In this document: positions 1 through 18,739 of the stretch, piece by piece
Numbering within the stretch: position 1 is the stretch's first letter
How the letters are laid out: the number at the start of each line of letters is the position of its first letter
NCBI GenBank assembly: GCA_965219995.1
Contig: CBDCOX010000002.1
Location: forward strand, 1,312,001-1,376,000
DNA length: 64,000 nt
Source: Candidatus Latescibacterota bacterium
GTDB lineage: Bacteria; Latescibacterota; UBA2968; GCA-2709665
Direction of reading: 5' to 3'
Made by a program: the position numbers and the translations under genes
The notes under the pieces: generated by a model
What the model was told of the DNA's origin: nothing
The model's input: the letters and a program-made list of their open reading frames with translations, nothing else
Databases searched by the model: none

Positions 1-323
1 ACCTGTAGCAGGCGACGCTGCAGCAGCGTCTGCATGTCCCGACGTCCATCCGCGATAACGAACACGTATACAGAATCGCCGACCACCTTATAGATAATTC
101 TGTAGGGCTTGAAGAAGACCTCCCGATATTCCCGTACCCCAATGTCCAGCAGTTCCCTCGGATGGTTCCCTCTCTCCGGATGCACGGACAGGCCCAGGAA
201 GGCTCTTTCGATCCGCTCCAACACATAATCCGCGCTGGTCGGCGAATCGTACCGGTCGATATAGTCACAGATCTCTTCCAGGTCGCGGGCGGCATCATCG
301 GTCAACTGGACTTCAAAAGCCAT
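1..323 (-). CDS. ParE/RelE-family type II toxin (3' end runs off the window)
   Basis: Manual translation from ATG at 323: MAFEVQLTDDAARDLEEICDYIDRYDSPTSADYVLERIERAF...HPERG...YREVFFKPYRIIYKV...VIADGRRDMQTLLQRRLL. Start overlaps the antitoxin stop (TGATG). Confidence 0.85.
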   Translation of the reverse strand, partial: MAFEVQLTDDAARDLEEICDYIDRYDSPTSADYVLERIERAFLGLSVHPERGNHPRELLDIGVREYREVFFKPYRIIYKVVGDSVYVFVIADGRRDMQTLLQRRLLQ

Positions 324-592
324 CAGCGATCCCGTTTCCGCAGCCGCGCGATCACGTCCGTAGCGGGTTCTACCCGGGCGGCGTCAATCTGACGGTTGCC
401 CAGCGCCAGAATCTTGAGCAACGCCATCGTCTCCTGTGTTTTTTCAAAGCTGTCTATGTCCTGCAACACCACCTTGGCCTCGCCATTCTGAGTGATGACC
501 ATGGGCTCTCCCTTTTCACGGAGCGTACTCACGATCTCCGAGACATGGGCCTTGAGGTAGCTGATCGGCTTGATCTGGCTGGACAGTTTCAT
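323..592 (-). CDS. Phd/YefM-family antitoxin
   Basis: IKPISYLKAHVSEIV...EPMVITQNGEAKVVL is the typical Phd N-terminus; AGGAGG SD upstream; coupled to the toxin. Confidence 0.9.
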   Translation of the reverse strand: MKLSSQIKPISYLKAHVSEIVSTLREKGEPMVITQNGEAKVVLQDIDSFEKTQETMALLKILALGNRQIDAARVEPATDVIARLRKRDR

Positions 593-1046
593 AAGCGCCT
601 CCTTTCCTGTCCAAATTTAGTCCATAAACAGGTCAAACGCAAGCGCTGAATTCCCCGGTCTGCATCTGCAGTTAACGTCCGGCCAAGCCGCGACGTCGCA
701 CGGACACTTTTCCCAGACCCTCGCCAGACTACTGCTATCCAGATTCTCCGTCGCCCTTTTTTCCTGACAAACACGCGTCTGAATGAGGTGCTATTTGCCG
801 CTTCACGGAACGTGCCAGGCCAATGCAATGCGATTTCAATCCGGAATTACGGGCTTTCAGACCGAACGAGACTGTTTTTCCGACATTTTACAAACTTCGC
901 GATTGACCTGAACCCGTTGAAATCATATATAGTCAGTACCCTCAGCGACTCCGCGTCTCTTGCGCCGCCGAACCTGTCGGATTCGCGGTTTGCGTTCAGA
1001 CTGCAGTGTCGCAGTTCGCATTGAAAGTACGTGGAGGTCATCACCC

Positions 1047-2690
1047 GTGCATGAAATCGATTTTCTCGGGGATCTGATAATCATACTCGGTTCGGCGGTC
1101 CTGGTCGCAACGGTTCTGCGCCGCGCGGGCATCCCGTCGATCGCGGGGCTGATTCTTGCGGGTATGTTCGCGGGGCCCACGGCGCTGGGCCTGGTGGACG
1201 ACACGCATCAGGTCGAGATGATGGCCGAGGTCGGAATTGTCCTCCTGCTCTTCGGGATCGGTCTGGAACTCTCGCTGAGGCATATGAGGCGCATGTGGAA
1301 TGCCATCCTGCTGGGCGGCGGCATCCAGGTGGCCGCCACGATCCTGTGCACCGCACTTGCGGCGGGATGGTTCGGCATGGCACCGGGGCCTGCGGTGTTT
1401 CTGGGATTCGTTGTCGCGGTCTCCAGCACGGCCATTGTGCTGCGCGGGCTTTCGAGCCGCGGTGAACTGGACGCGCCGCATGGCCGCCTGGCCGTTGGCA
1501 TCCTGATTTTCCAGGACCTGTGTGTGGTTCCGATGATCCTGGCGGTGCCTTTTCTGGCAGGTCAGGATGGAACCACGTGGGAAATCGCGGTCGCTGCCGC
1601 CACGGGTCTCGCCATTCTGGCGGGAGTGCTTGTTGCAGCCAATCGTACGGTACCCTACATACTCGCATTCGTTGCCAGGTCGCGAGAGAGAGAATTGTTC
1701 GTACTCACGGTGTTTCTCGTGTGTTTCGGCATTGCGTGGGTCCTGTCGATGGCGGGAATATCGCTGGCGCTCGGGGCGTTCCTCGCGGGCCTGATCGTCG
1801 CCGGCAGCGAGTTTCGTCACCAGGCGATGTCGGACCTGATACCCGTGCGCGAAGCTTTCGCCAGCCTCTTCTTTGTATCCGTGGGCATGCTGCTGGATGT
1901 TTCGGAGGTACTTGCGCATCTGCTGCCGACGCTCGGGCTCTGCGCTGTCATTCTCGCGGGAAAGTTCGTCATCGTGCTCGGGATGGGCCTGATCCTTCGG
2001 CTTCCGCTCCGCGTCGCAATCCAGTCCGCTGCAACTCTGTGTCAGATCGGCGAGTTTTCATTCGTACTCCTGAACGCGGCTTCCGGAACCGGCCTCCTCG
2101 ACACAGCACTGTCCGATAACCTCCTTTTCGCGATCATCCTGTCCATGTTGCTCACCCCCATCGCCATCGCCTTCGCCCCTCACCTTGCGCTCGGGGTCAC
2201 CCGAATTCCGTGGCTGAACCGGATTCTGGATGCCGAGCCCCCCGGGATCGATACGCACGAACCGCACAGCGACCACGTCATCGTCGCCGGATACGGGCGG
2301 GCGGGCCGGGAAGTCTGCCATGCTGCCCGGGACGCGGGATTCGCCTGCGTTGCGGTGGACGTCAACGTGGACAATGTTCGGAAGGCGCATGCGGCAGGTG
2401 ACCTGGCGGTGTACGGCGACGTCACTCAGCGGGAAGTCCTGGAAGAACTCGGGTGCCGGGATGCGCGTCTGGTTGTGGTGACGATAAACGACACCCGGGC
2501 CACCGAGGTCGCCGTCCGCGCGATCCGGCGCGCGGCTCCTGACACACGGGTTATCGCGCGCACCATGTACGATATGGATGAGAGCTCATTGCGTGCCGCC
2601 GGCGCCAGCCGGGTCATCACAGCCGAAGCGACCACAAGCGACGTCGTTGTCGGCACGTGTCTCGAGGAACTAAAAGCGGGGAGACGGTAG
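1047..2690 (+). CDS. CPA2 cation:proton antiporter (KefB/KefC-like) with C-terminal TrkA-N/KTN domain
   Basis: Many TM helices with LLLFGIGLE, SSTAIV, ILIFQDL, ALGAFLAG, FFVSVGM, QIGEFSFV; KTN motif HVIVAGYGRAG. GGAGG SD favours GTG 1047 over the ORF-track start at 960. Confidence 0.9.
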   Translation: MHEIDFLGDLIIILGSAVLVATVLRRAGIPSIAGLILAGMFAGPTALGLVDDTHQVEMMAEVGIVLLLFGIGLELSLRHMRRMWNAILLGGGIQVAATILCTALAAGWFGMAPGPAVFLGFVVAVSSTAIVLRGLSSRGELDAPHGRLAVGILIFQDLCVVPMILAVPFLAGQDGTTWEIAVAAATGLAILAGVLVAANRTVPYILAFVARSRERELFVLTVFLVCFGIAWVLSMAGISLALGAFLAGLIVAGSEFRHQAMSDLIPVREAFASLFFVSVGMLLDVSEVLAHLLPTLGLCAVILAGKFVIVLGMGLILRLPLRVAIQSAATLCQIGEFSFVLLNAASGTGLLDTALSDNLLFAIILSMLLTPIAIAFAPHLALGVTRIPWLNRILDAEPPGIDTHEPHSDHVIVAGYGRAGREVCHAARDAGFACVAVDVNVDNVRKAHAAGDLAVYGDVTQREVLEELGCRDARLVVVTINDTRATEVAVRAIRRAAPDTRVIARTMYDMDESSLRAAGASRVITAEATTSDVVVGTCLEELKAGRR

Positions 2691-2843
2691 ATGAAGGCGG
2701 TGAGACGGGAGACGGTAGACGGGAGATGACATCCTTGCCCAAACGCTTTTCCCTTATGCCTCTGGCAAGAAATGAAACCGACCGGGGCAGACAATCTCTC
2801 ACGTCTCACCTCTTTCCCTGGGAGCGAGGGCATCTTGCGCTCG
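2683..2843. repeat. Short tandem GACGG(G/T)A repeats plus a REP-like palindrome (GGAGCGAGGGCATCTTGCGCTCG)
   Basis: gacggga-gacggta-gacggga at about 2705-2725; imperfect hairpin CGAGGGCA-TCT-TGCGCTCG at about 2825-2843. Confidence 0.45.
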
Positions 2844-3126
2844 ATGCGCTCCGTTTTGGTCCTGCCGCTTCAAGGCGCACACTTCGACGAATTTCGTTTT
2901 TGATTCAAGCTGACTGTTGAAGACGGATAGCTGATTGCATTTCCTAACGATCCCAGCCCCCACTGCCAAACGCAAGGTCCCGATGGAATACTCCACCGGG
3001 ACTTCCTTTTTTTAAATATCCCGCCGCCAAGACTGTTGCATTTTACAACTGTCTTGGCGGCGGGTTGGATTGACGATCGAACCTGATTTCGATATATTCC
3101 CGTGACGTCCAATCTACCCAAACCAG

Positions 3127-4470
3127 ATGAGTCGGGACGAGAAAAGACCACTTCGGAGAGCCATAACTTACCAAGACGGATCAATGTCACGAGATCGAGA
3201 GCTGCCACTTCCCCCGGAATTTCAAGAACAGATCAACCAGGTCCAGGCAATCGGTTGTATAGCACCGTTTCTGGCTCTCCTTTCACGATTTGGCGTTGGC
3301 GGCGATCGTCTCAAGAACTTCGTCGCTGATTTCAGGGAATTGAAAGCCCAGGCGGCAGAGCTTGCCGAATTGCCAGTGGCGTTCCATGAAGGCTTTGCAG
3401 AACGCGGCTGGCTCATTTCGGAGTCCACAAGTCTTGAAACAGCAAGGGCGGCACTTTCTGGCCTAGAATGCTGCAGCATCAACGACGCTGAAGATCTATT
3501 GGCTTCTGATTATGAAGGCGACAGACTGGATTTTGTCGTAAAGCGCCTATGCCAGACGCAGGGATTCAAGTTGCGCAAAGCGCAGCTTCAGGAAGCACTC
3601 ACGTTAACCCACGAAGGCCGTTACCTTGCCGCAGCACCGTTGCTGCTTATAGTTGCGGACGGGGTCGGCGAGGATGAGTTTAAAAAGTCGATCTTCAGTG
3701 ACGGTGTAGACCTCGAGGAACTCCATTCATTGGCCGGCCAACCAGACGCTTTGCCCAGACTGGTTAAACAGATGTGCCGCACTCGACGAAAGACTACTGA
3801 GGAAACCGTCAGTTTTCCGTACCGAAACGGTATTCTCCATGGCCGCGACCTTGGCTATGGCAACCGATTGATCACCGCGAAATGTTGGTCGTTCTTGAGC
3901 AATATTGCCGATGTAATTCGTGCCCGTGAAGCGAAACGGTCTCTGAATCCGGAGCCCGAGCCTTCCATTTCCGATCTCCTCGACAGGCATGCCAATACGT
4001 TGGATCAAAGGGAGCGAATCACGGCATGGCGAGCTCGGCCAATTTCCAGAGACCGGATCAACGTGTTTGCCGAACCAACGACATATGACCTTGTGTCGGA
4101 CGAACCAGAAACAGCACTTGCTGATTTTTTGAGGGCCTGGAAAGGAAACAACTTTGGACGTATGGGTGCGTTGACGGTTTACTTCGACAATCGCCCGGTC
4201 AACCGACGCGCGGGTGAAATCCGGAAGATGATAAACGGCGTGACGCTTATTGGTGCTGTCATCATATGCATTGAAGATAAAATGCCCGCAATTACAGAGA
4301 TCACGGTCGATCTGTCTTATAGTGTGGAGAGTGGGAATCGCTCAGATAGGTTCACATTTGTCATGAATTGTGTTGATGACGACGGGGAACTCGCCGTTCA
4401 CGGAGATAAGGCGGCACATTGGCTGGTTTTACCCAGCTATCAAGGTTGGGCGACTCAGCATCGCACTTAA
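3127..4470 (+). CDS. Hypothetical protein with HEPN-type Rx4H motif and a possible C-terminal NTF2-like domain
   Basis: Helical N-half (QEALTLTHEGRYLAAAPLLL...DG) followed by YRNGILHG; C-terminal PETALADFLRAWKGNNFGRM followed by beta strands. Alternative start 3184. Confidence 0.6.
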   Translation: MSRDEKRPLRRAITYQDGSMSRDRELPLPPEFQEQINQVQAIGCIAPFLALLSRFGVGGDRLKNFVADFRELKAQAAELAELPVAFHEGFAERGWLISESTSLETARAALSGLECCSINDAEDLLASDYEGDRLDFVVKRLCQTQGFKLRKAQLQEALTLTHEGRYLAAAPLLLIVADGVGEDEFKKSIFSDGVDLEELHSLAGQPDALPRLVKQMCRTRRKTTEETVSFPYRNGILHGRDLGYGNRLITAKCWSFLSNIADVIRAREAKRSLNPEPEPSISDLLDRHANTLDQRERITAWRARPISRDRINVFAEPTTYDLVSDEPETALADFLRAWKGNNFGRMGALTVYFDNRPVNRRAGEIRKMINGVTLIGAVIICIEDKMPAITEITVDLSYSVESGNRSDRFTFVMNCVDDDGELAVHGDKAAHWLVLPSYQGWATQHRT

Positions 4471-4695
4471 GTACAACACGGCGACGGTAGAATTGACTTT
4501 GTCAGACGTGTCGACAGATGGCCACCTGCTGGGCGCAATTGGCTGCAAGGATCTGGATCTGCGGTAATTCTACACTTACGCAAGCATTCATTGGCGCCCC
4601 TTCAATGAAAGAGTGGAGGCACAACAGACCTGTCTAGACGCCCCAGTACACACTAAGCCAAGCCTCACCGCGTTCGCTAGTTGCAGACATAAGAA

Positions 4696-4725
4696 GATCC
4701 CGACGATCGATCCCATCGGGGTCTT
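4696..4725. repeat. Palindromic dispersed repeat, copy 1 (copy 2 at 21856-21885)
   Basis: gatcccgacgatcgatcccatcggggtctt vs gaccccgacggacgatcccatcggggtctt, 27/30 identical; forms a hairpin. Confidence 0.65.
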
Positions 4726-5070
4726 TTTCTGTACGGAACTTAACACCGAATCCGTCGCAGAATGCGACGTATACAGCTGCGCGTCGTGTTGAATTGACCA
4801 TAGATACGGATTCGCATATATTGCGTTCTCTTTCCATAAGATATCCATGCGCTCGTCTGTCAATGGTGGTTGATAAAGTGCGTGGAGTAGGTTTCGCAAG
4901 AGTGAATACCTGTACCTGCAATGCCAATCAGTCTGTCAGACGTTAAGTTGGCAGCATTGATAGATCTGCGTTACACAAATTCGAGAATCGACTTTGGGAA
5001 AAAGTGGCATAACCTCAGAAATCGCAGTTAATCGACGTTTATAATCTCACGAATTCGGGAAGTAATCTCG

Positions 5071-6261
5071 ATGTTCACAGGTGCATCGCGGATCAAGTCT
5101 CTCGAAATCTTCGCTGGTGCAGGTGGGCTCGCGCTCGGCGCCGCACGTGCCGGATTTCGTCATGTCGCCGTGATTGATTCTGACAATGCGTCTTGCCGCA
5201 CACTGCGTCGAAACAAGGCTGACGGGGTTGAGCATGCATTGAACTGGAAAATCGTAGAATCCGATACGCGTTTTTACGATTTCGAGAAGTACGCAGGGCA
5301 CGTACATTTGGTTTCGGGAGGACCGCCATGCCAACCCTTTTCCAGCGGTGGCAAGCGATTGGGCCACGCCGATAAGCGGGACATGTTTCCACATGCCATC
5401 CGAGCGGTCCGTGAGATTCGGCCAATGGGATTCCTATTTGAGAACGTCAAAGGGCTAATTAGACCAAGCTTTTCACGCTACTACGAATACATAATTCTAC
5501 AGCTCAGGTTTCCAGGTGTCTCACAGCGGGACGGAGAGAATTGGACCGATCATTACCGCAGACTTGAGCAACTATGTGCGGCCACGAGCAATTCGGAACT
5601 TATGTACAACGTTGCCTACAAATGTCTGAACGCTGCCGATTACGGCGTTCCACAAAGACGTGAACGTGTCTTCGTCGTTGGAACTAGGGCTGACCTTGGA
5701 TTGGAGTTCAACTTCCCACAAGGATCACACTCACGTGAGGCGCTTCTGCGTGATCAATGGGTAACTGGACATTACTGGGAACGCCACGAGATTCCGAAGT
5801 CTAAACGCCCGAATGGGCCACCAAACAGGCTGAAGCGACGGATTGAAAAACTATCCTTAGGTGTTTTTGATGAACTTGGTAGCCCCTGGCGGACTGTGCG
5901 TGACGCGATTCGCGACCTGCCTAGAGTTGGGATAGGTCAGACGTCCAAGAAAGCCTCGAATCATTTTCTCAACCCAGGGGCGCGTGCATACCCGGGGCAC
6001 GATGGCAGCAGATGGGACGAACCCGCGAAGACGATTAAGGCTGGTGACCACGGCGTGCCGGGCGGCGAGAACACTCTACGTTATGACGGTTTATCAGTGA
6101 GGTATTTCTCGGTTCGGGAGTGTGCTCGCTTGCAAACATTCCCCGACAACTGGTACTTTGAGGGATCCTGGACCAATTCCATGCGGCAACTAGGTAATGC
6201 TGTTCCTGTTGATCTTGCCAATGCGGTCGCTTCGAAACTCTTCGCTGCACTTGCGGGTTAG
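5071..6261 (+). CDS. dcm: DNA (cytosine-5) methyltransferase, M.Eco29kI/M.SacII-like by recall (possible target CCGCGG)
   Basis: Motif I FAGAGG, IV GGPPCQPFS, VI ENVKG, VIII QRRERVFVVG, IX RLQTFP, X GNAVP. TRD PGARAYPGHDGS...KTIKAGDHGVPGGEN resembles my recollection of M.Eco29kI. Confidence 0.95.
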   Translation: MFTGASRIKSLEIFAGAGGLALGAARAGFRHVAVIDSDNASCRTLRRNKADGVEHALNWKIVESDTRFYDFEKYAGHVHLVSGGPPCQPFSSGGKRLGHADKRDMFPHAIRAVREIRPMGFLFENVKGLIRPSFSRYYEYIILQLRFPGVSQRDGENWTDHYRRLEQLCAATSNSELMYNVAYKCLNAADYGVPQRRERVFVVGTRADLGLEFNFPQGSHSREALLRDQWVTGHYWERHEIPKSKRPNGPPNRLKRRIEKLSLGVFDELGSPWRTVRDAIRDLPRVGIGQTSKKASNHFLNPGARAYPGHDGSRWDEPAKTIKAGDHGVPGGENTLRYDGLSVRYFSVRECARLQTFPDNWYFEGSWTNSMRQLGNAVPVDLANAVASKLFAALAG

Positions 6262-6330
6262 GGAAACTCTGAAAAACGACACCTACGTCCATAATGGTAG
6301 ACACTCAATATGCCTGAGGAGGAATAACCG

Positions 6331-8709
6331 GTGAGACATTTCGATCTAACGCCGCATCCCCGCATACTGCCAATGCTTGGAGAAATCGTCCTACCTCAGT
6401 GGCGATGTCTCGCCGAACTAATAGACAATTCGGCGGACTCCTTCATCGAAGCGCAGCGTGCCGGTAATCCAGTACAAGATCCACGAGTGAGAATCAGCGT
6501 CCCAACCGGGAATTCGCAAAGCAGTCGGCTGGTGGTAATGGACAACGGCCCCGGGATGGATGCCGACACCCTAGAACGTGCTGCCCGAGCAGGGTGGACT
6601 AGCCATGACCCAATAAATAATCTCGGTTTGTTTGGGATGGGGTTTAATATCGCCACCGCCCGCCTTGGATCTCATACGTCAATTTGGACGACTCGGCACG
6701 GCGCATCCGAATGGGTCGGATTGGGCATAGATTTTAACTTAATGATAAAAAAACAGGATTTTATCTCGCCTGCGTTAAGCCGACCCAAGTTAGACCGCGA
6801 TATATCCGGCACGGAGGTCATTGTTGAGAGTTTGAAGCCCGAGCAAGTCGAATGGTTTAGCAGAGCGTACAATCGCAGTAACGTTGGAAGACAACTTGGC
6901 CGAACCTATTCGTCAATGATTGGACCCGCGCAAACGCCTGTTGGGTTTCGGCTCGAAATCAACGGTAATCAGGTTCGGCCCAGACTTCACTGTATCTGGG
7001 GAGGACCCGGAAATTCCGAACGCTTCGTCGAGTCTTCGCGGCACGGTACGGTTAATGCCTTTCAGCCCTTCGAGGTACCCCTAAAGTCACGGCCATTCTG
7101 CACACAGTGCTGGAACTGGCTCGGTGCAAATGAGTTGGTATGTGCATCATGCGAAGCCTCTGGTGAAGTCGTCCAGCGCGAAAGGCGAGTGCATGGCTGG
7201 CTCGGTATTCAACGCTATCTTGACCGAAACGAGTATGGAGTTGACATCCTGAGGAATGGGCGCAAGATCGAAATAGGGAATAAGGATTTCTTTAAATGGC
7301 TTGATGATAGTGCGGGTACTGAAGAGATAGAGTATCCTATCGACGACCCAAGAGACCGTGGGCGAATCGTGGGCGAAGTTCACCTAGACCATTGCAGGGT
7401 GCCATACACTAAGGATCGCTTTGTCAGAGAGGACACCGCTTGGCACGAAATGCTCGACATCGTGCGCGGGAGGACCCCACTTCGTCCAGATATAGCTAAG
7501 AAAATGGGTGCGGGCGAGAATATCTCGCCGCTGTATCGTTTGTTCCAAGTATTTCGACGCTCCAATCCCCATAGCCGGCTTGCAGGTGGATGGGGCCAGT
7601 TACTTGTCGTACCTGACAACGACCGCGCCAAGGCAATGGTCCGAGGATTCGATGCGGGGGACCCAGCATATGAGACCGACCAAAAATGGTGGGAACTTGT
7701 CGAAGAAGCAGAAGCAGCTGTCCTCAAAGACAATTCGCCCTCGCCTGGTGACCCTTCCGAAACACTTGGCGATAATGATGAGAGTCCGTCTGATGAAACA
7801 CTCGGTGGTGACGGGACCGGCGCCGCTGACGATGGTTCCACTCATCCGAATAGCGCAGCTGTTAGCTGCAGAAAACCAAGTCGCACGCGTCTCCCGGGTT
7901 TAACTCAACAGTATACGGAGGAGTTAACCGGTCAGCGGTTCGACGTGGAGGCGTTCGAGGTCTCTGCAGACGACCCGATTCTAGCGGGGCGAGGATGCCC
8001 TTGGGAAATTCGTAGAACTGCATCTGGTGCATGGCAGTTTTATGTTGACACAAGTGCTACGGCGTTTCATTCAATGACCCTAACGCCACGGGATGCACTG
8101 CTAGTACAGCTGGCTTGGCTGATCGCAGACTTCGAGAGGGGTCAACAGGGTTCAGAGGTAAGTTTCGGCGCGGCCCTGATGAGCCTACGTACTAGATACG
8201 CTAGATCATCTATGCTAGTTGCACAAGATATGGTGTCTGAGTCGTTATCCCAACTCGTTAATATTGCGCGGAGTATCGTTGATCGAATATCGAGTGAGGA
8301 TGTCCGGACATTCTTCGACAATCTATCACCGTCACGCCAAGAGAGTATACGGGTCAACATGGCTTCCCGTGGTGTCACGGACCCGCATGGAGCGATCGAC
8401 GATGGGAGATTCTTGCAGTACGCGTCCCCTGTCATCATCAGTGATTTCGTTGTGTCGAATCCAAGTATGTTCTTTGACGGCAACTACTGGGATGAAGCAT
8501 TCTCAACTTTGGACTTTGGTAGTGCCGGTGCCACGGAAGAAGCTAGGGCTAGGACTATCAGCTACTACGCGGGGCTTCTAGCTGACACTGTTTGGTTGGC
8601 ACAGCAGGCACCATCAGACCTAGAAGCAATGAGCCGCGAAAAGCTGATGAGGGCATTCCTTGCATCCGAGCTTCTCGCACCTACAATTAACTTTGGAGAC
8701 GACGATTGA
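6331..8709 (+). CDS. GHKL (MORC-like) ATPase with S5-like domain, inserted CxxC-x10-CxxC Zn ribbon and uncharacterised C-terminal domain
   Basis: LAELIDNSADS, DNGPGM, LGLFGMG, SGTEV (Bergerat motifs); GVDILRNGRKI S5-type motif; CTQC...CASC; GAGGAGG SD before GTG. Confidence 0.9.
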   Translation: MRHFDLTPHPRILPMLGEIVLPQWRCLAELIDNSADSFIEAQRAGNPVQDPRVRISVPTGNSQSSRLVVMDNGPGMDADTLERAARAGWTSHDPINNLGLFGMGFNIATARLGSHTSIWTTRHGASEWVGLGIDFNLMIKKQDFISPALSRPKLDRDISGTEVIVESLKPEQVEWFSRAYNRSNVGRQLGRTYSSMIGPAQTPVGFRLEINGNQVRPRLHCIWGGPGNSERFVESSRHGTVNAFQPFEVPLKSRPFCTQCWNWLGANELVCASCEASGEVVQRERRVHGWLGIQRYLDRNEYGVDILRNGRKIEIGNKDFFKWLDDSAGTEEIEYPIDDPRDRGRIVGEVHLDHCRVPYTKDRFVREDTAWHEMLDIVRGRTPLRPDIAKKMGAGENISPLYRLFQVFRRSNPHSRLAGGWGQLLVVPDNDRAKAMVRGFDAGDPAYETDQKWWELVEEAEAAVLKDNSPSPGDPSETLGDNDESPSDETLGGDGTGAADDGSTHPNSAAVSCRKPSRTRLPGLTQQYTEELTGQRFDVEAFEVSADDPILAGRGCPWEIRRTASGAWQFYVDTSATAFHSMTLTPRDALLVQLAWLIADFERGQQGSEVSFGAALMSLRTRYARSSMLVAQDMVSESLSQLVNIARSIVDRISSEDVRTFFDNLSPSRQESIRVNMASRGVTDPHGAIDDGRFLQYASPVIISDFVVSNPSMFFDGNYWDEAFSTLDFGSAGATEEARARTISYYAGLLADTVWLAQQAPSDLEAMSREKLMRAFLASELLAPTINFGDDD

Positions 8710-10394
8710 ACCGTGACGACACCCAATTCCTCGGAATTACACGCTTACTCAAGGGGCCCTGGCAGGCATTTGAGCGGGATGTCGCACGTCTATTTATTCA
8801 GAATGGATTCGACGATGTTCAAGTCGTCGGTGGAGTTGGTGATAGGGGTGGGGACGTATTGTCTCGCAAGGGTGGAAAGCTATGGGTTACCCAATGCAAG
8901 CACACTACCTCTTCGCCACCTGCGGTTTCAGCAGTCGATGAAGTCATCGAGGCGGGAGAATACTATGGCGCGGATAGACTCCTTATTGCGTCATCCCGTC
9001 GTGCATCGGACACACTTAGGCTACGGGTTCGGAAAGAACAGAAGCTAGGCTTGGCAATTGAATTAGCAGAGCCGTCGAGGCTCCTCAAATGGATGCGTAA
9101 TAGTAACGAGTATCCCACTCACATCAAGAAACTTCGTCCGTATCAGCTCGAAGCATCCGAAAGCCTACGCAATGCTCTGGTGGATACTGGACGAGGCCAG
9201 TTGGTACTCGCTACAGGTCTCGGTAAAACCGTTATAATGGCCGAAACCGTGGCAAACCTCCTTCGCGACGGTCGCGTGCCCGGAAATCTGGTTCTAGTCC
9301 TTGCGCACACACGTGTACTCGTGGATCAACTCTTACGTGAATTTTGGTTCCAATTGCCGAAGACGGTAGCAACGCACCGATTTGCCGACCAAGAAACGCC
9401 AGTATATTGGGACGGTATAACGTTTGCGACAATTCAGAGTATCTCGCGGAATATTGACATCCTACCCAACTTTGGCTTAGTCGTCGTCGACGAGGTACAT
9501 CACATCGGTGCAGCTACTTTTCAGGAAACTATCGAAGCGCTGTGTCCAAACATGCTCGCTGGCGTTACCGCGACGCCATGGCGAGGTGATGGGTATGATA
9601 TTGACCGCCTCCTCGGGCCCCCGTTGATAAAAATGGGAATTCCCGAAGGCCTAAGAGCCGGATATTTGAGTGACGTTGACTATCGTCTTCTAGCCGACGA
9701 CCTTAATTGGAAATTCGTCCAACAAGCGTCGACTTTCAGTTACTCGCTTTCTCAATTGAACCGAAAGTTGATCCTGACCACTCGAGATGACGAGGCGGCC
9801 AGACTAGCCAGCGAAGCTTTCAGAAACGAAAAACGGCATACCGCAATCGCCTATTGCCCGTCTGGGGTACATGCCAAGACTTTTGCCGCCACATTGAGAC
9901 AGTATGGTTTTCGAGCTGAGGCAATTCTAAATGAAACGCCTTCGAGAGAGAGAGTGCAGCGAATGTCATGGCTAAGAGAAGGAAGAATGCAATTTGCGAC
10001 CGTTGTTGACCTCTTTAATGAAGGAGTCGACGTGCCAGAAGTCGATATGATCGTATTCATGCGGGTAACACATAGTAGACGGATCTTCGTTCAACAGCTT
10101 GGTCGGGGATTGCGAATTGGTCCGGGAAAGGATCGACTGGTTGTATTGGACTTCGTCACTGATTTGAGGCGAATCTCGGAGGTGGTTACACTAGATCAAG
10201 CCGTAAAGGGAGGCAGAATCGAACGCCTCGGACTTGGAAAATCACTAATATCCTTCAATAATCACTCGGCAGGCTCATTTCTTCGCGAATGGATGTTGGA
10301 CCAAGCCTCATTATTGTCAAGGGAGGGAGATCCTCAACTTGAGGTACCGCGATATAACTTCCCGGAGCCGCCTCCTCCAGGGGGTGTGCAATGA
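8706..10394 (+). CDS. Mrr-type PD-(D/E)xK nuclease fused to SF2 (DExH) helicase/translocase
   Basis: N-term WQAFERDVARLF...GDRGGDV...VTQCKH; LRPYQ, ATGLGKT, DEVHH, TATP, FNEGVDVP, QQLGRGLR. TTG start overlaps the upstream TGA. Confidence 0.9.
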   Translation: MNRDDTQFLGITRLLKGPWQAFERDVARLFIQNGFDDVQVVGGVGDRGGDVLSRKGGKLWVTQCKHTTSSPPAVSAVDEVIEAGEYYGADRLLIASSRRASDTLRLRVRKEQKLGLAIELAEPSRLLKWMRNSNEYPTHIKKLRPYQLEASESLRNALVDTGRGQLVLATGLGKTVIMAETVANLLRDGRVPGNLVLVLAHTRVLVDQLLREFWFQLPKTVATHRFADQETPVYWDGITFATIQSISRNIDILPNFGLVVVDEVHHIGAATFQETIEALCPNMLAGVTATPWRGDGYDIDRLLGPPLIKMGIPEGLRAGYLSDVDYRLLADDLNWKFVQQASTFSYSLSQLNRKLILTTRDDEAARLASEAFRNEKRHTAIAYCPSGVHAKTFAATLRQYGFRAEAILNETPSRERVQRMSWLREGRMQFATVVDLFNEGVDVPEVDMIVFMRVTHSRRIFVQQLGRGLRIGPGKDRLVVLDFVTDLRRISEVVTLDQAVKGGRIERLGLGKSLISFNNHSAGSFLREWMLDQASLLSREGDPQLEVPRYNFPEPPPPGGVQ

Positions 10395-10918
10395 AAGTCC
10401 CTGACAGAGTGTTCCTTCGGATCAAACGGACTCTGTGGAAAACCGCAGATGATTTGAATTGGCCGACGCTGACAAACCCGCAAAAGTCAATGATGTTTGA
10501 AGATTGGATAAGGAATGAGCATGTGGGTGGTGTTCTTTCTAGGTATTTGGATAAGGGAAGCGTTCGTGTCTACTTAAAGGACACTATTATGAAGCCTTAT
10601 CTTCGCGAACGCATCAAAGACTTTTCCATTGTGGCAAAGCTTCTTGGGTTATCAAACGCCCTCGTCGTGCAGTCGTACATTAAGCCCCACGGGCGCCGGC
10701 TTGCCGACGGTAGGGTTGTTTGTTGGGGACTGGCAAGGGATTGGAAGAGTATTTTATTCGCGGTCTTTGAAAGGGCGCATGTTGTTCCATCCGCAGTCCC
10801 ATTTGCCGCAGTGATACTGTATCCGACTCAGCAATGCCAACAACCGGCATATCGCGAAATGATCGAGGCTGCTACGTCAAGACTGGGTATACGGCGGCTT
10901 GAATGGTACGACAATTAG
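10391..10918 (+). CDS. Hypothetical 175-aa protein in the defence operon
   Basis: ATGA overlap with the helicase stop; globular, protein-like composition; no motif recognised. Confidence 0.75.
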   Translation: MKVPDRVFLRIKRTLWKTADDLNWPTLTNPQKSMMFEDWIRNEHVGGVLSRYLDKGSVRVYLKDTIMKPYLRERIKDFSIVAKLLGLSNALVVQSYIKPHGRRLADGRVVCWGLARDWKSILFAVFERAHVVPSAVPFAAVILYPTQQCQQPAYREMIEAATSRLGIRRLEWYDN

Positions 10919-11016
10919 TGTCTTACAGGAAGATTTCTATGCAGAATGCGTTGATGTCTTGTCATCCTGTCAGTATTTCAAAAAGGCGTTACGATCGCCC
11001 CACCGCATCAGAAGAC

Positions 11017-11078
11017 GCCGGCCCTTCGACAAGCTCAGGGATCGGCTTAGCTTCTGCGACTCTCCCTCAGGCGGGAGT
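11017..11078. repeat. REP-like palindromic remnant (CCCTTCGACAAGCTCAGGG type) plus a second hairpin
   Basis: gccggcccttcgacaagctcagggatcggc hairpin followed by gactctccctcaggcgggagtc. Confidence 0.5.
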
Positions 11079-11162
11079 CCTCAATCCGTTGAAACGGCGC
11101 ACGCATTCGCTTGCGCCTATTTGGTTGGGGCTGAGCATAGCGAAACCGCGCTAGGATATGGT

Positions 11163-11600
11163 ATGAAAGACCCGTTAACCCGCGAACAACGGAGCAAACG
11201 TATGTCGCTTGTTCGCGCCAAGGACACAAAGGCAGAGATGCGGGTTCGGAAGATATTCCATTCACTTGGGTACCGGTACCGACTTCACATACGCGACTTA
11301 CCAGGCTGCCCTGATCTCGTTGTACGCCGTCGCAAAAAAGCAATCTTCGTTCATGGGTGTTTCTGGCACCAGCACAACTGCTCGATGGGCAACCGCATGC
11401 CGAAAACCAGGATCGATTTTTGGCGGGAGAAGCTGGACGGGAACAAAAAGAGAGACGTTGAGAATATCCGTCTATTGATGGACCACGGCTGGTCGGTATT
11501 GGTCATTTGGGAATGTGAGACAAAGCCGTCCAACCTTGGCGATTTGGCTTCGCGAATCGTGTCGTTTATGGAATGCCCGTCTCAATTGGCATCGATGTAA
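11163..11600 (+). CDS. vsr: Very short patch repair endonuclease
   Basis: MKDPLTREQRSKRMSLVRAKDTKAEM...LPGCPDLV...IFVHGCFWHQH...FWREKL..N..RD...GWSVLVIWECE. True start ATG 11163. Confidence 0.95.
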   Translation: MKDPLTREQRSKRMSLVRAKDTKAEMRVRKIFHSLGYRYRLHIRDLPGCPDLVVRRRKKAIFVHGCFWHQHNCSMGNRMPKTRIDFWREKLDGNKKRDVENIRLLMDHGWSVLVIWECETKPSNLGDLASRIVSFMECPSQLASM

Positions 11601-11827
11601 CTGGCCAATTTTCGCGAGCAACGTCATGAGGAATTCGACCTCGAAACCGCATAACGTATCCCGGAGTCGGGCTACGACAGTGTACATTATGGGCAACTCG
11701 CAAAACCCAAGTGACGTTTGTTGTTAATTGATCTTTCTCTCGGTACGTACTTTATTAATCTGTTCCCGTGTCATGCTGCGAAGGAATAAAGGCGAACCGC
11801 CCGTTGAGCAATACGACGTAGACACCT

Positions 11828-12283
11828 GTGATCGATCGCGCGTCGCATGAACGAATTTGTAGTCAACAGGATCAAGGTCTAATGACCCAGACATGCATTT
11901 ACGTCATGTCCGCGGTCTTCGCGCGGAAACCGCATAGCCCACTCCACTTACGCCCATCATGGCTTCATGGCTGGTTCCGCCGGATGGCTGGTGTACCGCT
12001 GCTGCTGCTGATCGTCGCCATTTCGACCATGGCGTCAGCGCAGGAGCGGCCGCTGAGGTTCACGTCGACGGCGTGGTCGCCGTTCACGAACGCCCCGCAG
12101 CGTTCCTACGAGCTCTTCGAGTCGGGCAAGGCTACTGCGATGCCGGTTGAGGCATGTCGCTTCTACTTCGGCGGTAAGGGTTGCGAAGACTGGTGCAGCG
12201 TGCCCGAAAAATTCAATGCCCTGGACGTCGACAACCCCGATGCGCGTAGCCTCAAGATCAAAGTCTTCACCTTCAAGTCTTGA
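11828..12283 (+). pseudogene. Probable chimeric gene remnant (signal peptide/solute-binding-protein N-terminus joined to an unrelated C-terminus)
   Basis: PLLLLIVAISTMASAQERPLRFTSTAWSPFTN resembles the start of a family-3 SBP, but the ORF ends about 60 aa later. Confidence 0.35.
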
Positions 12284-12363
12284 CCGGACCTGATTTGGAG
12301 CCAGTAACGGGGTGAGAGGAGAGATGAGGGATGGCGGGGCAACGAATCGATCAGCCACGATAG

Positions 12364-14817
12364 TTATTCATCTCGCAAGGCATCAATCGGATTGGCTTGT
12401 GCTGCGCGGACTGCCTGGATACTAACGGTTACGAATGCAATGAATAGAGCCAGTGTCGCGCTCGCGACAAAGGGCACGACAGTCAACGAGGTCCGATACG
12501 CAAACCCGGAAAGCCAGTCGCGCATCAGATAATAGGCGATTGGCCAGGCGACCACGCTGGCAACGAGAATAAGAAGCAGGAATTCACGCGAGAGCAGCAT
12601 CACCAGATGCGGCGTGGATGCGCCAAGTACCTTTCGAACGCCGATTTCCTTGGTGCGAGACTGGACCATAAACGCCACAAGTCCGAACAACCCCATGCAC
12701 GCCACGAAGATTGCCAGCAATGAAAACACCCCGAGCATTTTACCCGTGCGTATCTCATTGAAATAGATCCACTCCATGAACTCATCCATGAAATGATATT
12801 CAAATGGCTCATCCGGCACGAAGCGTTTCCATTGCGATTCGAGAAAAGCAAGGGTCTGCGCGGTCCCTTCCGGTCGGATGCGCAGGTTCAGCGAATAAAA
12901 GAACTCCGAGCGGGCGATAAAACCCAGGGGCTCTATTTCTGCTCGTAGCGACAGGGCGTGGTAGTCTCTCACAACCCCGATTACGGTCACTACCTGGTCC
13001 TTAAAGGCAGGTGACTCGATCTGTCTGCCAATTGGATCATTCTCCCATCCGAGCAGACGCACGGCGGTTTCATTCAGAATAATGGCCTGTGATGTATCGC
13101 TGGCTACATCTGCTGAAAAAGCGCGACCGAGCAGCACGGGGACGTCAAATGTCTCGAAGAATGAACCGTCAACTTCGTTAATGCGAATTGTACGTTCTCG
13201 TGTCCGGTCCCCATCGGGCCAGATCAAGCGCGGCCGTCCTGCGTATCCCGCTATTCTGTACCGCACTGCCGACGCCCTCAGGACATTGGGGTGTTCGAGG
13301 AATACCTGCTTCACCATCTCGTGGCGTGCCGAGAGACGTTTTTTCGGGTTCGGTTCCGCGAAAACGTCATGACTGAAAATGGGTAGGCTAACAATATGAC
13401 CGCGTGCGAACCCCAGATCTTTCGTGTCTATGTATCGCAATTGCTGATAGACGACGAGCGTGCAGATGACCAGCAAAATGGATGTACCGAACTGAAAAAC
13501 CACGAGTCCCTTCTTCAGCCATGCAGTTCCAGAGGATGAAAACGTACCGCCCCTTAGCGCGGTTACCGGGAGAAAGGAGGACAGGAAGAATGCAGGATAC
13601 GCGCCTGCCAGTAGTCCGGCCAATACCGTTAATGCCAATACTGCCGGCGCAGATGCCGCAATTATCGACACATCGATGTGCAGATCGCTCTGTGCGAATT
13701 GATTGAATAGAGGCACGGATATATCTGCGAGCGCCAGGGCAATCAGCAGCGCGATGCCGGTCAATAGCAGGGATTCGCCCAAAAACTGAACCATCAGTTG
13801 CGGCCGGTGCGCCCCGACCACCTTTCGCACGCCCACTTCCCGCTTCCGGGTGACAGCCCGCGCGGTCGCCAGATTGGTAAAATTCACGCACGCGATGACG
13901 ACAACGATCATTCCGATGGTCGCGAGCATGTAAATTCGTTGAATGCGGCCCCAGTCCTTGGGATTGAAATCGGATGTGCCGTACAGGTACACCCGGTGAA
14001 TCGGCTGGAGATGAAACGCTGATTTTGTCGCAATTTCACCCCCCATGAACCGCTCGATTAGCGACTGCATTTTCGTTTGCAGGGATCTGTGGTCTTGTCC
14101 GGCTTTGAGTAGTACAAAAGTCTCCACGGGCCGCCAGGAGAGCATTGGCTGCCACATTGTCCACTTATCCCTTACTTCCCCGACGGGCGTCACCGTTGTT
14201 GAGAGGATCTGAAAATTTAGGCCTGACGAGGGATGCGGCGCCTTCAGGATCCCGGTCACTGTATATTCGCCGGGAAACACGGTGCTTTCGACTGAGAAAG
14301 ACCGGCCCATCGGGTCATCGTCGCCAAACAGGTGGCGAGCCATGTCCTCGGTAACGATCACCGAGTTTGGGAATCGAAATGCAATCTCCGGATCGCCACG
14401 TATCAAGTCGAAATCAAAGACTCTCAGAAAGCCGTCGTCAACCAGCGCGAACTCATACTCACCCGTTCGCTCTCCGTATTGCGCGTTCACGGGCCATCGC
14501 CAGAAACGTATGGTTGTCTCTACCTCGGGAAACGACGCTTCCAACTCCGGTCCGAGCGCGCCCGAGGTCCCGCTCTCGTAGGTTGTTCGCGTTGTTTTGC
14601 GCACTTCTCGAATCACTTTGTAAATCCGATCGCCCAGAGTGTAGAATCTATCGACCGAAAACTCCTGCTTGACGTACAACAGGATCAGAATGGCACCCGC
14701 CAACCCGATCGCGAGACCCAACACATTGACGGCGGTGTACAATTTGTGCCGCAGCAAGTTGCGGACAGCGACAGTCAGGAGATTCTTGATCACGGGTATT
14801 TCCGTAGGGACGAACAT
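12364..14817 (-). CDS. ABC transporter permease, MacB/FtsX double-domain type
   Basis: KNLLTVAVRNLLRHKLYTAVNVLGLAIG, NFTNLATA, REVGVRKVVGA, KEIGVRKVLGA, ANPIDALRDE. GTG 14793 is an alternative start. No ATPase partner in the window. Confidence 0.93.
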   Translation of the reverse strand: MFVPTEIPVIKNLLTVAVRNLLRHKLYTAVNVLGLAIGLAGAILILLYVKQEFSVDRFYTLGDRIYKVIREVRKTTRTTYESGTSGALGPELEASFPEVETTIRFWRWPVNAQYGERTGEYEFALVDDGFLRVFDFDLIRGDPEIAFRFPNSVIVTEDMARHLFGDDDPMGRSFSVESTVFPGEYTVTGILKAPHPSSGLNFQILSTTVTPVGEVRDKWTMWQPMLSWRPVETFVLLKAGQDHRSLQTKMQSLIERFMGGEIATKSAFHLQPIHRVYLYGTSDFNPKDWGRIQRIYMLATIGMIVVVIACVNFTNLATARAVTRKREVGVRKVVGAHRPQLMVQFLGESLLLTGIALLIALALADISVPLFNQFAQSDLHIDVSIIAASAPAVLALTVLAGLLAGAYPAFFLSSFLPVTALRGGTFSSSGTAWLKKGLVVFQFGTSILLVICTLVVYQQLRYIDTKDLGFARGHIVSLPIFSHDVFAEPNPKKRLSARHEMVKQVFLEHPNVLRASAVRYRIAGYAGRPRLIWPDGDRTRERTIRINEVDGSFFETFDVPVLLGRAFSADVASDTSQAIILNETAVRLLGWENDPIGRQIESPAFKDQVVTVIGVVRDYHALSLRAEIEPLGFIARSEFFYSLNLRIRPEGTAQTLAFLESQWKRFVPDEPFEYHFMDEFMEWIYFNEIRTGKMLGVFSLLAIFVACMGLFGLVAFMVQSRTKEIGVRKVLGASTPHLVMLLSREFLLLILVASVVAWPIAYYLMRDWLSGFAYRTSLTVVPFVASATLALFIAFVTVSIQAVRAAQANPIDALRDE

Positions 14818-15150
14818 CCTCGCATACGAGCCACGAGGTCGATTTCAATTGGAATGAAGACTTAACCGGGTCAATCTTACAACGTATCTGGATGCAGGCC
14901 GAGTCAATATCGTCAACCCGCCGCTAATATTCAACAGCAATAACCCTGCCAAACGACTTAATTATATAAATAATAACAGGTTGCTGATTTATGCGCAAAT
15001 CTGCTGCCTATAAAGTGTTCGATTTCAATACAGTACTGTCCGATTTCGATACAGTCGCACGCGGCCAGGGTGGCGGCGTTGGGCCGTAATTGCTCGTGTA
15101 AACAGGCAACAATGATCAGGGAGTGCGGCTCTAGTGCGCCACGAGAGGCC

Positions 15151-15174
15151 GGGCGCCCGCAAGGGACGCCCCTA
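15151..15174. repeat. GTAG-type REP palindrome, copy 1 (copy 2 at 48253-48276)
   Basis: gggcgcccgcaagggacgccccta vs gggcgcccacaagggacgcaccta, 22/24 identical. Confidence 0.65.
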
Positions 15175-15273
15175 AAAAGCGTGGGGAGTGAATCCTGGTT
15201 ACGACGTTGAGTCGCTTCATCGGATCGCTCAATGGTTTCTTCCATGTGCACTCAAGTATGGATATTTTGAGAT

Positions 15274-15298
15274 GGGCAGACGGGAATGTCCGCCCCAC
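15274..15298. repeat. REP-like palindrome GGGCAGAC-GGGAAT-GTCCGCCC-CAC
   Basis: Imperfect 8-bp hairpin with a GTGG foot on the minus strand. Confidence 0.45.
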
Positions 15299-15370
15299 CT
15301 TCCGAATCCGCATTCCAAACGTGTCGACGGGTCATTGACGGAGTGTGTCTTTCGTACGGGAGTAGCGAAA

Positions 15371-16156
15371 ATGGTGAGGCGACGAACAGGGTTGGCGACG
15401 ATATTTCTGACGATTCTCGCGCTTGCCGCCGCGGGCGTAGCCACAGAACCGAGCGATGAGGACCTGAAGGACGTCCGGAGGCGGGCCGGGCGAGGGGATG
15501 CGGAGGCCCAGTTCGTTCTCGGCACGATGTACGGCAACGGTCTCGGCGTTCCCCGGGACTTCGCGGAGGCGGTCAGGTGGTTCCGTCCGGCCGCCGAGCA
15601 GGGTCACGCGGCGGCGCAAAACAGCCTGGGATGGATGTACGCCAACGGCCTCGGCGTCGAGCGGGATCTCGATCAGGCGATCAGATGGTACCGCGCCGCG
15701 GCGAAACAGGGTCACGCCGACGCCCGTTTCAATCTTGGCACGGCATATAACAGGGGGCGCGGCGTGAAACAGGACCGCGCGAAAGCGCTCGCTTTCTATC
15801 GCGAAGCCGCCCGTCAGGACCACGCGGGCGCCCAGTACCTTCTGGGAATCATGTACGCCAACGCCCGCGGGACGCCCCGGGACTACGCAAAAGCGTTCAA
15901 ATGGTTCCGCCTGTCGGCCGACCGGGGCTTTGCGCGGGCACGATCTCAACTCGGGATGATGTACGCCATGGGCCTCGGCGTGGAACGGAACGACGTTACC
16001 GCCCACGCGCACTGCAATCTGGCCGCCGCCGCGGGAGACAGCCTGGGCGGCGTTGTGCGCGACAACCTGGAAAAGACAATGACCCCCGCGCAGATCTCGC
16101 AAGCCCGCCACCTCGCAGAGGAGTGGCGAAAGAAAGCGGAGAACGTAAAGGAATGA
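15371..16156 (+). CDS. Secreted Sel1-repeat (TPR-like) protein
   Basis: Signal peptide, then about 5 repeats of AxxGxAxAQxxLGxMYxxGxGVxxD. Start ATG 15371 preferred. Confidence 0.93.
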   Translation: MVRRRTGLATIFLTILALAAAGVATEPSDEDLKDVRRRAGRGDAEAQFVLGTMYGNGLGVPRDFAEAVRWFRPAAEQGHAAAQNSLGWMYANGLGVERDLDQAIRWYRAAAKQGHADARFNLGTAYNRGRGVKQDRAKALAFYREAARQDHAGAQYLLGIMYANARGTPRDYAKAFKWFRLSADRGFARARSQLGMMYAMGLGVERNDVTAHAHCNLAAAAGDSLGGVVRDNLEKTMTPAQISQARHLAEEWRKKAENVKE

Positions 16157-16291
16157 ACGGCGCGGACCGGAAAAAGAAGGGGTATGATGCAGTCACCCGA
16201 AGCACACGGGGATAGCGGCCGATCCCGGCGAGAACGACCATGCCGCAACTGACGCCACGGCAGGAACGTGAGAATTTCTCGGAAAAAAACG

Positions 16292-16314
16292 AGGCCCCTG
16301 AGATTCGGGGGCCT
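16292..16314. terminator. Bidirectional intrinsic terminator between convergent sel1 and NYN genes
   Basis: A-tract, AGGCCCCTGA-gat-TCGGGGGCCT, then ttatt. Confidence 0.6.
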
Positions 16315-16398
16315 TTATTGTTGACCGGCGCGGACTGGATGCGCGCAGCTCGGGCAAGAATTGGGACGCCGCCGCGACGAGATACGTTCCGGCGTCAC

Positions 16399-17447: not shown

Positions 17448-17475
17448 TTGACTTTTTGCATTCAAAATGCATAAT
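17448..17475 (+). promoter_or_regulatory. Sigma70-like, probably leaderless promoter with overlapping palindrome
   Basis: TTGACT-16nt-CATAAT ending 8 nt before ATG 17484, no SD; TGCATT-CAA-AATGCA at 17457-17471. Confidence 0.55.
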
Positions 17476-17483
17476 TTCCAGTC

Positions 17484-18707: not shown

Positions 18708-18739
18708 TGAGGCCTCGCCTTGGTTCCCCCGCCGGCCGT

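Follow-up and report, generated by a model that had tools for sequence, protein, structure and literature searches.

The eukaryotic MORC chromatin silencers are traced back to prokaryotic MORC ATPases. Operons joining such an ATPase to a Rad25-like helicase fused to a nuclease of the restriction-endonuclease fold were described by Iyer, Abhiman and Aravind in 2008 (PMC2292703); in the accessible text of that paper, cytosine methylases and Vsr are frequent in MORC operons, and a mechanism of looping and helicase loading is proposed. A locus of this composition was analysed here in a stretch of 64,000 nucleotides (nt), hereafter the window, from Candidatus Latescibacterota bacterium (assembly GCA_965219995.1, contig CBDCOX010000002.1, positions 1,312,001-1,376,000 of the forward strand). 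Five plus-strand open reading frames (ORFs) at window positions 5071-11600 encode, in this order, a 5-methylcytosine (m5C) methyltransferase, a GHKL ATPase, an Mrr nuclease fused to a superfamily 2 (SF2) helicase, a protein of 175 amino acids (aa) and Vsr, in agreement with the five co-oriented genes named in an earlier note made from the sequence alone (hereafter the original prediction). The locus is best explained as an ATP-driven, methylation-blocked restriction-modification system on an Eco29kI-type modification cassette, a reading to which a probability of about 0.6 is given. This reading is based on the strict linkage of the m5C methyltransferase, on the shuffling of the modification pair, and on an intact nuclease combined with two ATPase engines.

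The locus fits the first operon type of Iyer et al., as given in the accessible text (PMC2292703), in its components, its predicted role in restriction-modification and its looping and helicase mechanism, and it is not categorically new. The statement of the original prediction that no named system has this composition was therefore too strong. The 2008 work is a computational prediction, and its accessible text holds no 175-aa protein, no Eco29kI-type methyltransferase, no coexisting GIY-YIG endonuclease and no variant with a PIN_8 gene (PMC2292703). New here are the Eco29kI-type cassette with CCGCGG as its predicted site, the finding that the GIY-YIG endonuclease is either kept beside the module or replaced, the putative nuclease-like fold of the small protein, the connection of that protein with PIN_8, and how large and conserved the family is. 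No experimental study of a MORC-helicase system was found in a literature search that did not cover subscription-only papers, and a preprint of October 2026 still calls the role of prokaryotic MORC proteins in restriction 'proposed'. A compact, widespread locus with a concrete predicted site makes the 2008 prediction directly testable, and plasmid versions in cultured Ruegeria and Pseudosulfitobacter isolates are available as starting material.

The Eco29kI system (plasmid pECO29; GIY-YIG endonuclease), whose site is CCGCGG according to the accessible part of its description (PMC1952068), has the same methyltransferase family, recognition region included. Its PF09517 endonuclease was found neither in the window nor in the remainder of the genome (98.6% complete); three genes of an ATP-dependent module are present instead, and in this genome the MORC module occupies the place of the GIY-YIG endonuclease of the classical relatives. 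With Type III systems (Mod plus Res), the locus shares a ResIII-family SF2 motor fused to a PD-(D/E)xK-type nuclease and a separate methyltransferase. Type III Mod is a methyltransferase of the N6A/N4C class that carries site recognition, whereas the operon has a PF00145 m5C enzyme only, an N-terminal position of the nuclease and an extra MORC ATPase. The order of an N-terminal Mrr-like nuclease followed by an SF2 translocase is also that of the Type ISP enzymes LlaGI and LlaBIII. These are single polypeptides including an m6A methyltransferase and recognition domains; in the window, these functions are encoded by separate genes and a MORC ATPase is added. The ATP-dependent Type II systems CglI and NgoAVII combine an m5C methyltransferase with a nuclease subunit that depends on ATP and on a distinct SF2 helicase subunit; their nuclease is of the PLD family, their helicase carries a Z1 domain, and they have no GHKL ATPase. 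The only validated relative found is VcSduA (paraMORC3; Shedu type I-D), which, in the accessible text on it (PMC12137116), is an experimentally validated phage defence protein in which a GHKL ATPase controls a PD-(D/E)xK nuclease. It differs in being a single gene with a fused DUF4263 nuclease, without helicase or methyltransferase (PMC12137116, same text).

Hma combines a helicase-nuclease, a methyltransferase and an ATPase in a similar logic, with other families (Snf2 plus DUF3883, DUF1156 and DUF499) in the accessible parts of its descriptions (PMC8565338, PMC11232893). It was rejected as an identity of the locus, since the families are unrelated. No Hma model occurs among the 22 PADLOC families matched by the helicase or among the best 25 of 62 matches of the methyltransferase. 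All of those 22 families are matched via the helicase core only, and the matches of the methyltransferase to DruM and DrmMII models reflect its general m5C enzyme character. Following the PADLOC check suggested with the original prediction, no model (PADLOC 2.0) matched the GHKL or the 175-aa protein. The signature proteins DrmA/B of DISARM and PglZ of BREX were likewise not matched, in line with the lack of DISARM and BREX hallmarks stated from the sequence, and the same holds for HmaA/C of Hma and DruE of Druantia.

The operon and its encoded proteins

The GHKL gene (6331-8709; 792 aa; PF13589, 6.1e-12) has a GTG start with a GGAGGA ribosome-binding site upstream. Its stop shares a TTGA (8706-8709) with the start of the helicase gene, and the stop of the helicase gene in turn shares an ATGA (10391-10394) with the start of the 175-aa gene, confirming in the sequence the translational coupling first proposed for these three genes. 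In the protein, an ATPase module (aa 1-465) is connected through a disordered linker (469-513) to a C-terminal domain of about 280 residues (515-790). The GHKL motifs E29xxxN33, D71xGxG and the G99-G104 box are present; an alignment of 68 sequences shows no variation at E29, N33, D71, G75 and T161 or within the G99-G104 box. A four-Cys zinc ribbon (C257, C260, C271, C274), inserted in the S5 domain, is also invariant.

Following a profile search of PDB sequences with the GHKL family, MORC3 was the best match (7.7e-8), followed by MORC4. The AlphaFold model (mean predicted local distance difference test score, pLDDT, 85.9) was compared with known structures using Foldseek, where MORC3, SMCHD1, MORC2 and MORC4 ranked at the top at about 1e-13 with Hsp90-family entries alongside, and using VIA, with Z scores of 18.4 for SMCHD1, 17.6 for MORC3 and 17.6 for GRP94. 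Including the S5 transducer, the model aligns to the ATPase modules of MORC3, MORC2 and SMCHD1 through residues ~409-449 (Z 16.6-18.4); Hsp90-family chains lie within 1 Z unit of the MORC entries, so the fold alone is not MORC-specific. The MORC-defining S5 motif GhXhhpXXRhl, as given in the accessible text of Iyer et al. (PMC2292703), is found as G303-V-D-I-L-R-N-G-R311-K-I313, fitting at 10 of 11 positions with K312 at a hydrophobic position; G303, D305, R308, G310, R311 and I313 are invariant. In its sequence, its fold and its S5 motif, the GHKL ATPase resembles MORC proteins, and a paraMORC assignment may apply. No DUF4263 was matched by Pfam in the 792-aa protein at E<=0.01.

For the C-terminal domain, no Pfam match was obtained and an Atlas search gave unnamed clusters only; VIA returned weak matches, to HEPN-like helices (Z ~6) and small beta-domains (Z 5-6). 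Over 67 sequences, its mean identity to the window protein is 49-50%, against 64% for the ATPase module. In public annotation, the GHKL and 175-aa proteins appear only as 'ATP-binding protein' and 'hypothetical protein'.

The third gene (8706-10394; 562 aa) encodes an Mrr-type nuclease (aa 18-130; Mrr_cat, 1.1e-10) fused to a ResIII/Rad25-like SF2 helicase (aa 140-490; ResIII, 7.3e-25; Helicase_C, 1.3e-11). The Mrr residues D46/D50 and Q63-C-K65, which form the Mrr version (PD-QxK) of the PD-(D/E)xK motif, are invariant in 31 sequences, and so are Walker A (G171-LGKT175), D262-E-V-H265 and motif VI (Q463...R470) of the helicase. Together with those of the GHKL protein, the catalytic motifs are intact throughout the relatives, as the original prediction had it for the window. 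Among PDB sequences, the motor matches SauUSI (2.6e-26), RadD, Rad25/XPB and R subunits of type I enzymes; LlaBIII matches across the junction of nuclease and motor (residues 46-212; 9.8e-9). The longer helicase relatives (best 120 of 1375) are mostly SauUSI-like PLD-helicase-DUF3427 proteins.

The fourth gene (10391-10918) encodes the 175-aa accessory protein, for which no family was found in Pfam, NCBIfam, PADLOC or PHROGs, in line with its earlier description as an orphan. It belongs to a family of its own, with 158 members at E<=0.001 in a 90%-clustered collection and 374 representative clusters at the same threshold in a library of 1.84 billion proteins, nearly all of them stand-alone proteins of 170-210 aa. 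The structure model (pLDDT 95.4) shows a helical N-domain (1-76) followed by an alpha/beta C-domain (~73-175). Using VIA, residues 73-175 matched PD-(D/E)xK nucleases (CdiA-CT DNases, Can1, NucS, EcoT38I, Can2 and AF1548) at Z 5.0-6.8, where a Z under 8 can reflect a common arrangement; Foldseek gave nothing at E<=0.001. K63, D64, P99, H100, G101, W112, G113, W118, K119, E127 and R128 are invariant. The canonical D...(D/E)xK motif is lacking, P99-H100-G101 standing in the PD position and the strand 108-114 having no acidic-x-Lys; D64, H100, K119 and E127 may form a variant active site.

The methyltransferase gene (5071-6261; 396 aa; PF00145, 1.9e-57; TIGR00675, 2.5e-47) ends 69 nt before the GHKL gene. 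Its product is 45.2% identical to the pECO29 methyltransferase over residues 8-394 (98% of the query), and the target-recognition region aligns throughout with M.Eco29kI and other Eco29kI-linked methyltransferases. The closest plasmid homologs (50-55% identity) lie in methyltransferase-endonuclease (M-R) cassettes with an Eco29kI-family or GIY-YIG endonuclease, and vsr was present in two of three such plasmid cassettes examined. The m5C identity given originally stands, and the enzyme is in addition of the Eco29kI type, which had not been recognised; CCGCGG is for this reason its predicted target. The genome encodes only one other m5C methyltransferase, at a distant locus.

The last gene, vsr, encodes a very-short-patch T:G mismatch endonuclease (PF03852, 6e-28; TIGR00632, 6.5e-42). 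NCBIfam agreed with Pfam on the dcm and vsr calls and named nothing else in the operon above its cut-offs. The vsr ORF is open from 10899 (233 aa), and the original prediction identified the gene correctly. The Vsr domain begins at residue 89 (89-207 in Pfam and NCBIfam), an in-frame ATG at 11163 is preceded by AGGA, and Vsr ORFs of related loci measure ~135-160 aa. The gene therefore most likely starts at 11163 and covers 11163-11600, which places it 244 nt from the 175-aa gene and uncoupled from it.

Conserved linkage in related loci

Related loci were collected as follows. A word-limited protein search gave 2045 GHKL relatives, and in a metagenome search at least 597 stretches were matched, at least 524 of which encode a GHKL relative. 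The locus set combined 80 of these metagenome loci with five full-length relatives (species genomes), 20 IMG/VR loci and the window, 106 in total, resulting in 82 clusters at 90% GHKL identity. ORF classes were assigned by iterated profile searches seeded from the proteins of the window. Clusters with at least 4 kb upstream and at least 6 kb downstream were treated as fully flanked. The GHKL tree was built from 69 rows with a GHKL protein of at least 700 aa, leaving out 13 truncated clusters.

In all 68 clusters with at least 1 kb downstream of the GHKL gene, the helicase gene starts between -700 and +100 nt from the GHKL end on the same strand. Of the 30 fully flanked clusters, 29 contain an m5C methyltransferase gene and 25 contain vsr. 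These are the associations that characterize the first operon type of Iyer et al.; a lack of conserved synteny, named beforehand as an outcome that would refute the original prediction, was not observed. The near-constant methyltransferase is also compatible with its proposed function of marking self. Where at least 400 nt lie beyond the helicase gene (61 clusters), the small gene comes next in 46. Not being universal, the small protein cannot be an obligatory part of recognition, contrary to the role that had been assigned to it.

The methyltransferase and vsr move together around a fixed GHKL-helicase-small core, and are found upstream, downstream and on either strand. The arrangements MGHsv, vMGHs, GHsvM and GHs-mv each mark one clade of the GHKL tree. 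Modification and restriction modules usually shuffle as units in such a way. In most loci, the methyltransferase gene abuts or overlaps the GHKL gene, leaving no room for a further gene between them. Fifty clusters carry the methyltransferase type of the window, and the rest carry at least seven other m5C types (at least eight in all). Types M2-M5 each correspond to a supported GHKL clade, that is, four of the five types with at least two tree rows.

Among the fully flanked clusters without vsr, L093 and L120 have an HhH-GPD glycosylase gene instead, while neither gene was recognised in L004, L005 and L117. The glycosylase genes beside the m5C methyltransferase (L093, 9920-10645; L094, 2393-3124; L120, 12008-12676) presumably encode Mig-like T:G repair analogues. 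In L024, a second ResIII/Rad25-like helicase gene (9420-11651; 743 aa) without Mrr_cat follows vsr.

A PIN_8 (PF18476) gene directly follows the small gene in 10 clusters (L045, L049, L054, L057, L060, L062, L063, L066, L069 and L072). Eight of them fit a strict spacing; in L045 and L049, the called start of the PIN ORF overlaps the small gene. PIN_8 genes were also seen in plasmid loci (L133, 10029-11108; L134, 14760-15839), and none was found in the genome of the window. Literature on this family could not be traced beyond papers on plant PIN8. The protein library contained one fusion of PIN_8 to the small protein (P0363) and one of a protein kinase domain to its N-domain (P0393). Because of the adjacency of the PIN_8 gene and these two fusions, the small protein looks like a nuclease-associated adaptor, and the linkage suggests a six- or seven-gene variant of the system. 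In the distant loci L117, L120, L127 and L128, the position of the small gene is occupied by genes for unrelated proteins of 184-274 aa without a Pfam match; compared by hhalign, the profile of the small-protein family showed no similarity to the proteins of L117, L120 and L128. The third slot after the helicase may be a variable accessory position.

In L134, a Pseudosulfitobacter plasmid, IS66 and IS21 elements lie between the methyltransferase/Eco29kI endonuclease genes and the GHKL gene, and the GHKL gene is separated from the helicase gene by an IS3 transposase gene. This strain probably carries a disrupted system.

Proposed mechanism and alternatives

In the proposed system, the methyltransferase would methylate host sites, predicted to be CCGCGG, and Vsr would repair the T:G mismatches arising from deamination of m5C. 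The restriction half would be the coupled module of MORC-like GHKL ATPase, Mrr-nuclease::SF2 translocase and small protein with its putative restriction-endonuclease-like fold. Dimerising on ATP binding, the MORC protein would clamp DNA lacking the methyl mark and recruit or license the helicase-nuclease, which would then translocate on the DNA and cut with its Mrr domain. The 175-aa protein would act as an accessory subunit, either as a partner of the Mrr domain or as a nuclease adaptor. Candidate readers of the unmethylated site are the variable C-terminal domain of the GHKL protein, the zinc ribbon, the helical domain of the small protein and, as in Type III systems, the methyltransferase. 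More tentatively, with the odds somewhat against it, the module may represent a distinct class of ATP-dependent restriction enzyme that repeatedly joined Eco29kI-type cassettes and, in the majority of lineages, displaced their GIY-YIG endonuclease, unmethylated CCGCGG being sensed by the MORC clamp or by the methyltransferase bound to it. If correct, this would be the first mechanistic model of bacterial MORC ancestors coupling a cytosine-methylation mark to ATP-driven action on DNA, and the small protein would be a new nuclease-adaptor module that the system has in common with PIN_8 nucleases.

Several observations weigh against this mechanism. An intact Eco29kI-family endonuclease gene adjoins the methyltransferase gene in 11 of the 82 clusters, at five places in the GHKL tree. 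The methyltransferase therefore already has a partner there and the module need not be an endonuclease, which complicates the original view of the module as sole restriction partner. An example with a GIY-YIG nuclease beside the module is the 38-kb plasmid of Ruegeria sp. YS9, annotated in the order vsr, methyltransferase, GIY-YIG nuclease, 'ATP-binding protein', 'DEAD/DEAH box helicase', 'hypothetical protein', 'PIN-like'. Two clusters (L004, L123) keep an Eco29kI-type methyltransferase with a GHKL protein only 32-33% identical to that of the window, and L117 is the sole fully flanked cluster without a methyltransferase (none within 7 kb). No GHKL-helicase fusion was found among the best 120 of 1375 longer helicase relatives, and no domain reading a DNA sequence or methyl mark was identified in the proteins of the module.

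The coexisting endonucleases sharpen the question of whether the module is an independent restriction enzyme or a booster of one. As an add-on to a Type II system, the module would not find sites itself; breaks or nicks from an Eco29kI-type endonuclease or some other nuclease would serve as loading points for the MORC clamp and the Mrr-helicase, and the foreign DNA would then be degraded processively. The window would in this case have lost the primary endonuclease, retaining a remnant or a module with another entry point. Such a function agrees with the 11 clusters just mentioned, with the lack of a recognised sequence-reading domain, and with a helicase core nearest to restriction-enzyme translocases. 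It is nevertheless unlikely: 71 of the 82 clusters, including that of the window, show no Eco29kI endonuclease in the available DNA, the genome of the window has none, the tight junction of methyltransferase and GHKL genes in most loci leaves no space for one, and, judging from the invariant Mrr motifs, the module would have a cutting activity of its own. Weaker than this is the idea of a portable accessory for very-short-patch repair. MutL stimulates Vsr in Escherichia coli, and the MORC protein might stand for MutL, with the helicase-nuclease in place of UvrD and an exonuclease, removing the nicked strand where m5C made by the linked methyltransferase has been deaminated. Nearly all loci have a linked gene for deamination repair, either vsr or, in L093, L094 and L120, the glycosylase gene, and the accessible text of Iyer et al. 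notes the MutL-Vsr-UvrD parallel and allows that some versions were recruited for repair (PMC2292703). Yet vsr and any recognised glycosylase are both missing from three fully flanked clusters (L004, L005, L117). Classical vsr-M-R cassettes also do without the module, and vsr is not translationally coupled to it in the window. The Mrr-ResIII fusion, the mobility across phyla and the neighbours in defence islands are features of restriction, which makes a repair function doubtful.

A methylation-independent defence or anti-plasmid system, for example a clamp and nuclease sensing DNA topology or ends, merely co-inherited with an orphan methyltransferase and vsr, is similarly improbable and again weaker than the add-on function. 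L117, with its GHKL-helicase pair, would suit it, as would VcSduA, a GHKL protein of the paraMORC3-type Shedu that defends alone without a methyltransferase in the accessible description (PMC12137116). The methyltransferase is otherwise present in every fully flanked cluster, its type tracks the GHKL clades, and the operon arrangement in the window, with 69 nt between methyltransferase and GHKL genes, does not favour mere co-inheritance. Very unlikely is a modification-dependent, Type IV-like enzyme directed against otherwise modified foreign DNA, with a methyltransferase unrelated to self-protection. A catalytic domain of the Mrr kind is characteristic of Type IV enzymes, and the best PADLOC and PDB matches of the helicase core are Type IV enzymes of the SauUSI kind; however, the match is confined to that core, Pfam detected no PLD, DUF3427 or other modification-reading domain, and for an m5C-dependent nuclease, an m5C methyltransferase so closely linked would be a hazard. 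Methylation-blocked restriction, the preferred explanation, is also consistent with the mobility of the loci, seen in the IMG/VR contigs and the defence neighbours described below.

Horizontal acquisition and genomic surroundings

The operon lies in an inserted segment of ~9 kb (2941-12090). From 2941 to 12363, the GC content is 51.9%, compared with 59.3% in the left and 60.2% in the right flank, which bears out the lower-GC block of the original prediction. The end of the Na+/H+ exchanger gene (2687) and the MacB-like permease gene (12364) are 9.7 kb apart in the window, and in G010, the closest relative at 91-94% nucleotide identity, the same two positions are separated by ~680 bp; in a further relative (G002), homology of the right flank begins at window position 12091. 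The operon is single-copy in the 5.4-Mb genome. None of 14 same-genus genomes yielded the helicase protein, and a search of 40 relatives' genomes gave one weak unrelated match only (27% identity). The operon was acquired horizontally. For CCGCGG, composition alone would give 2.9 occurrences; the insert has one and the operon none, numbers too small to interpret.

Neither a tRNA gene (window 1-20000) nor an integrase (ORFs of 1-20000 scanned with Pfam) was found near the insert. No flanking direct repeats were found, and repeat, promoter and terminator scans rose nowhere above shuffled expectation. At the left edge (2670-2940) lie two tandem copies of a ~130-bp dispersed repeat, REP/MITE-like, with dozens of copies in this genome and in same-genus genomes. 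The insert also contains a 447-aa ORF (3127-4470), which matched nothing in Pfam, NCBIfam, PADLOC or PHROG and lacks homologs in the related loci; a comparison with the ESM Atlas gave unnamed bacterial clusters (score 0.98). A 151-aa ORF (11828-12283) likewise had no family and no homolog in any related locus, and both ORFs were rejected as parts of the system on these grounds. The 447-aa ORF may be a separate cargo gene.

The nearest relatives of the window locus, in metagenome-assembled genomes of Thermodesulfobacteriota, Verrucomicrobiota and Gammaproteobacteria, have a near-identical gene order and identities of 66-72% (GHKL), 74-76% (helicase) and 63-69% (small protein and methyltransferase). 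Cross-phylum transfer is therefore recent. As to mobility, 20 loci are on IMG/VR contigs and a GHKL relative is encoded on five plasmids; no match of the GHKL protein was obtained in the GenBank phage collection.

Flanking genes were compared with the PADLOC defence models (E<=1e-10), covering 110 of 172 candidate ORFs without a background control, and 23 of these 110 ORFs, in 11 of 20 loci, gave a match. Related loci sit in defence islands. Individual neighbours include DISARM DrmA/DrmB genes directly downstream in L023 (12118-16252, minus strand), a CBASS E1-E2 gene with a SAVED-HNH effector in L072 (148-3953), QatC, PsyrT and ShosA in L042 (2762-14638), and a pAgo/SIR2-like gene in L084 (2939-4405).

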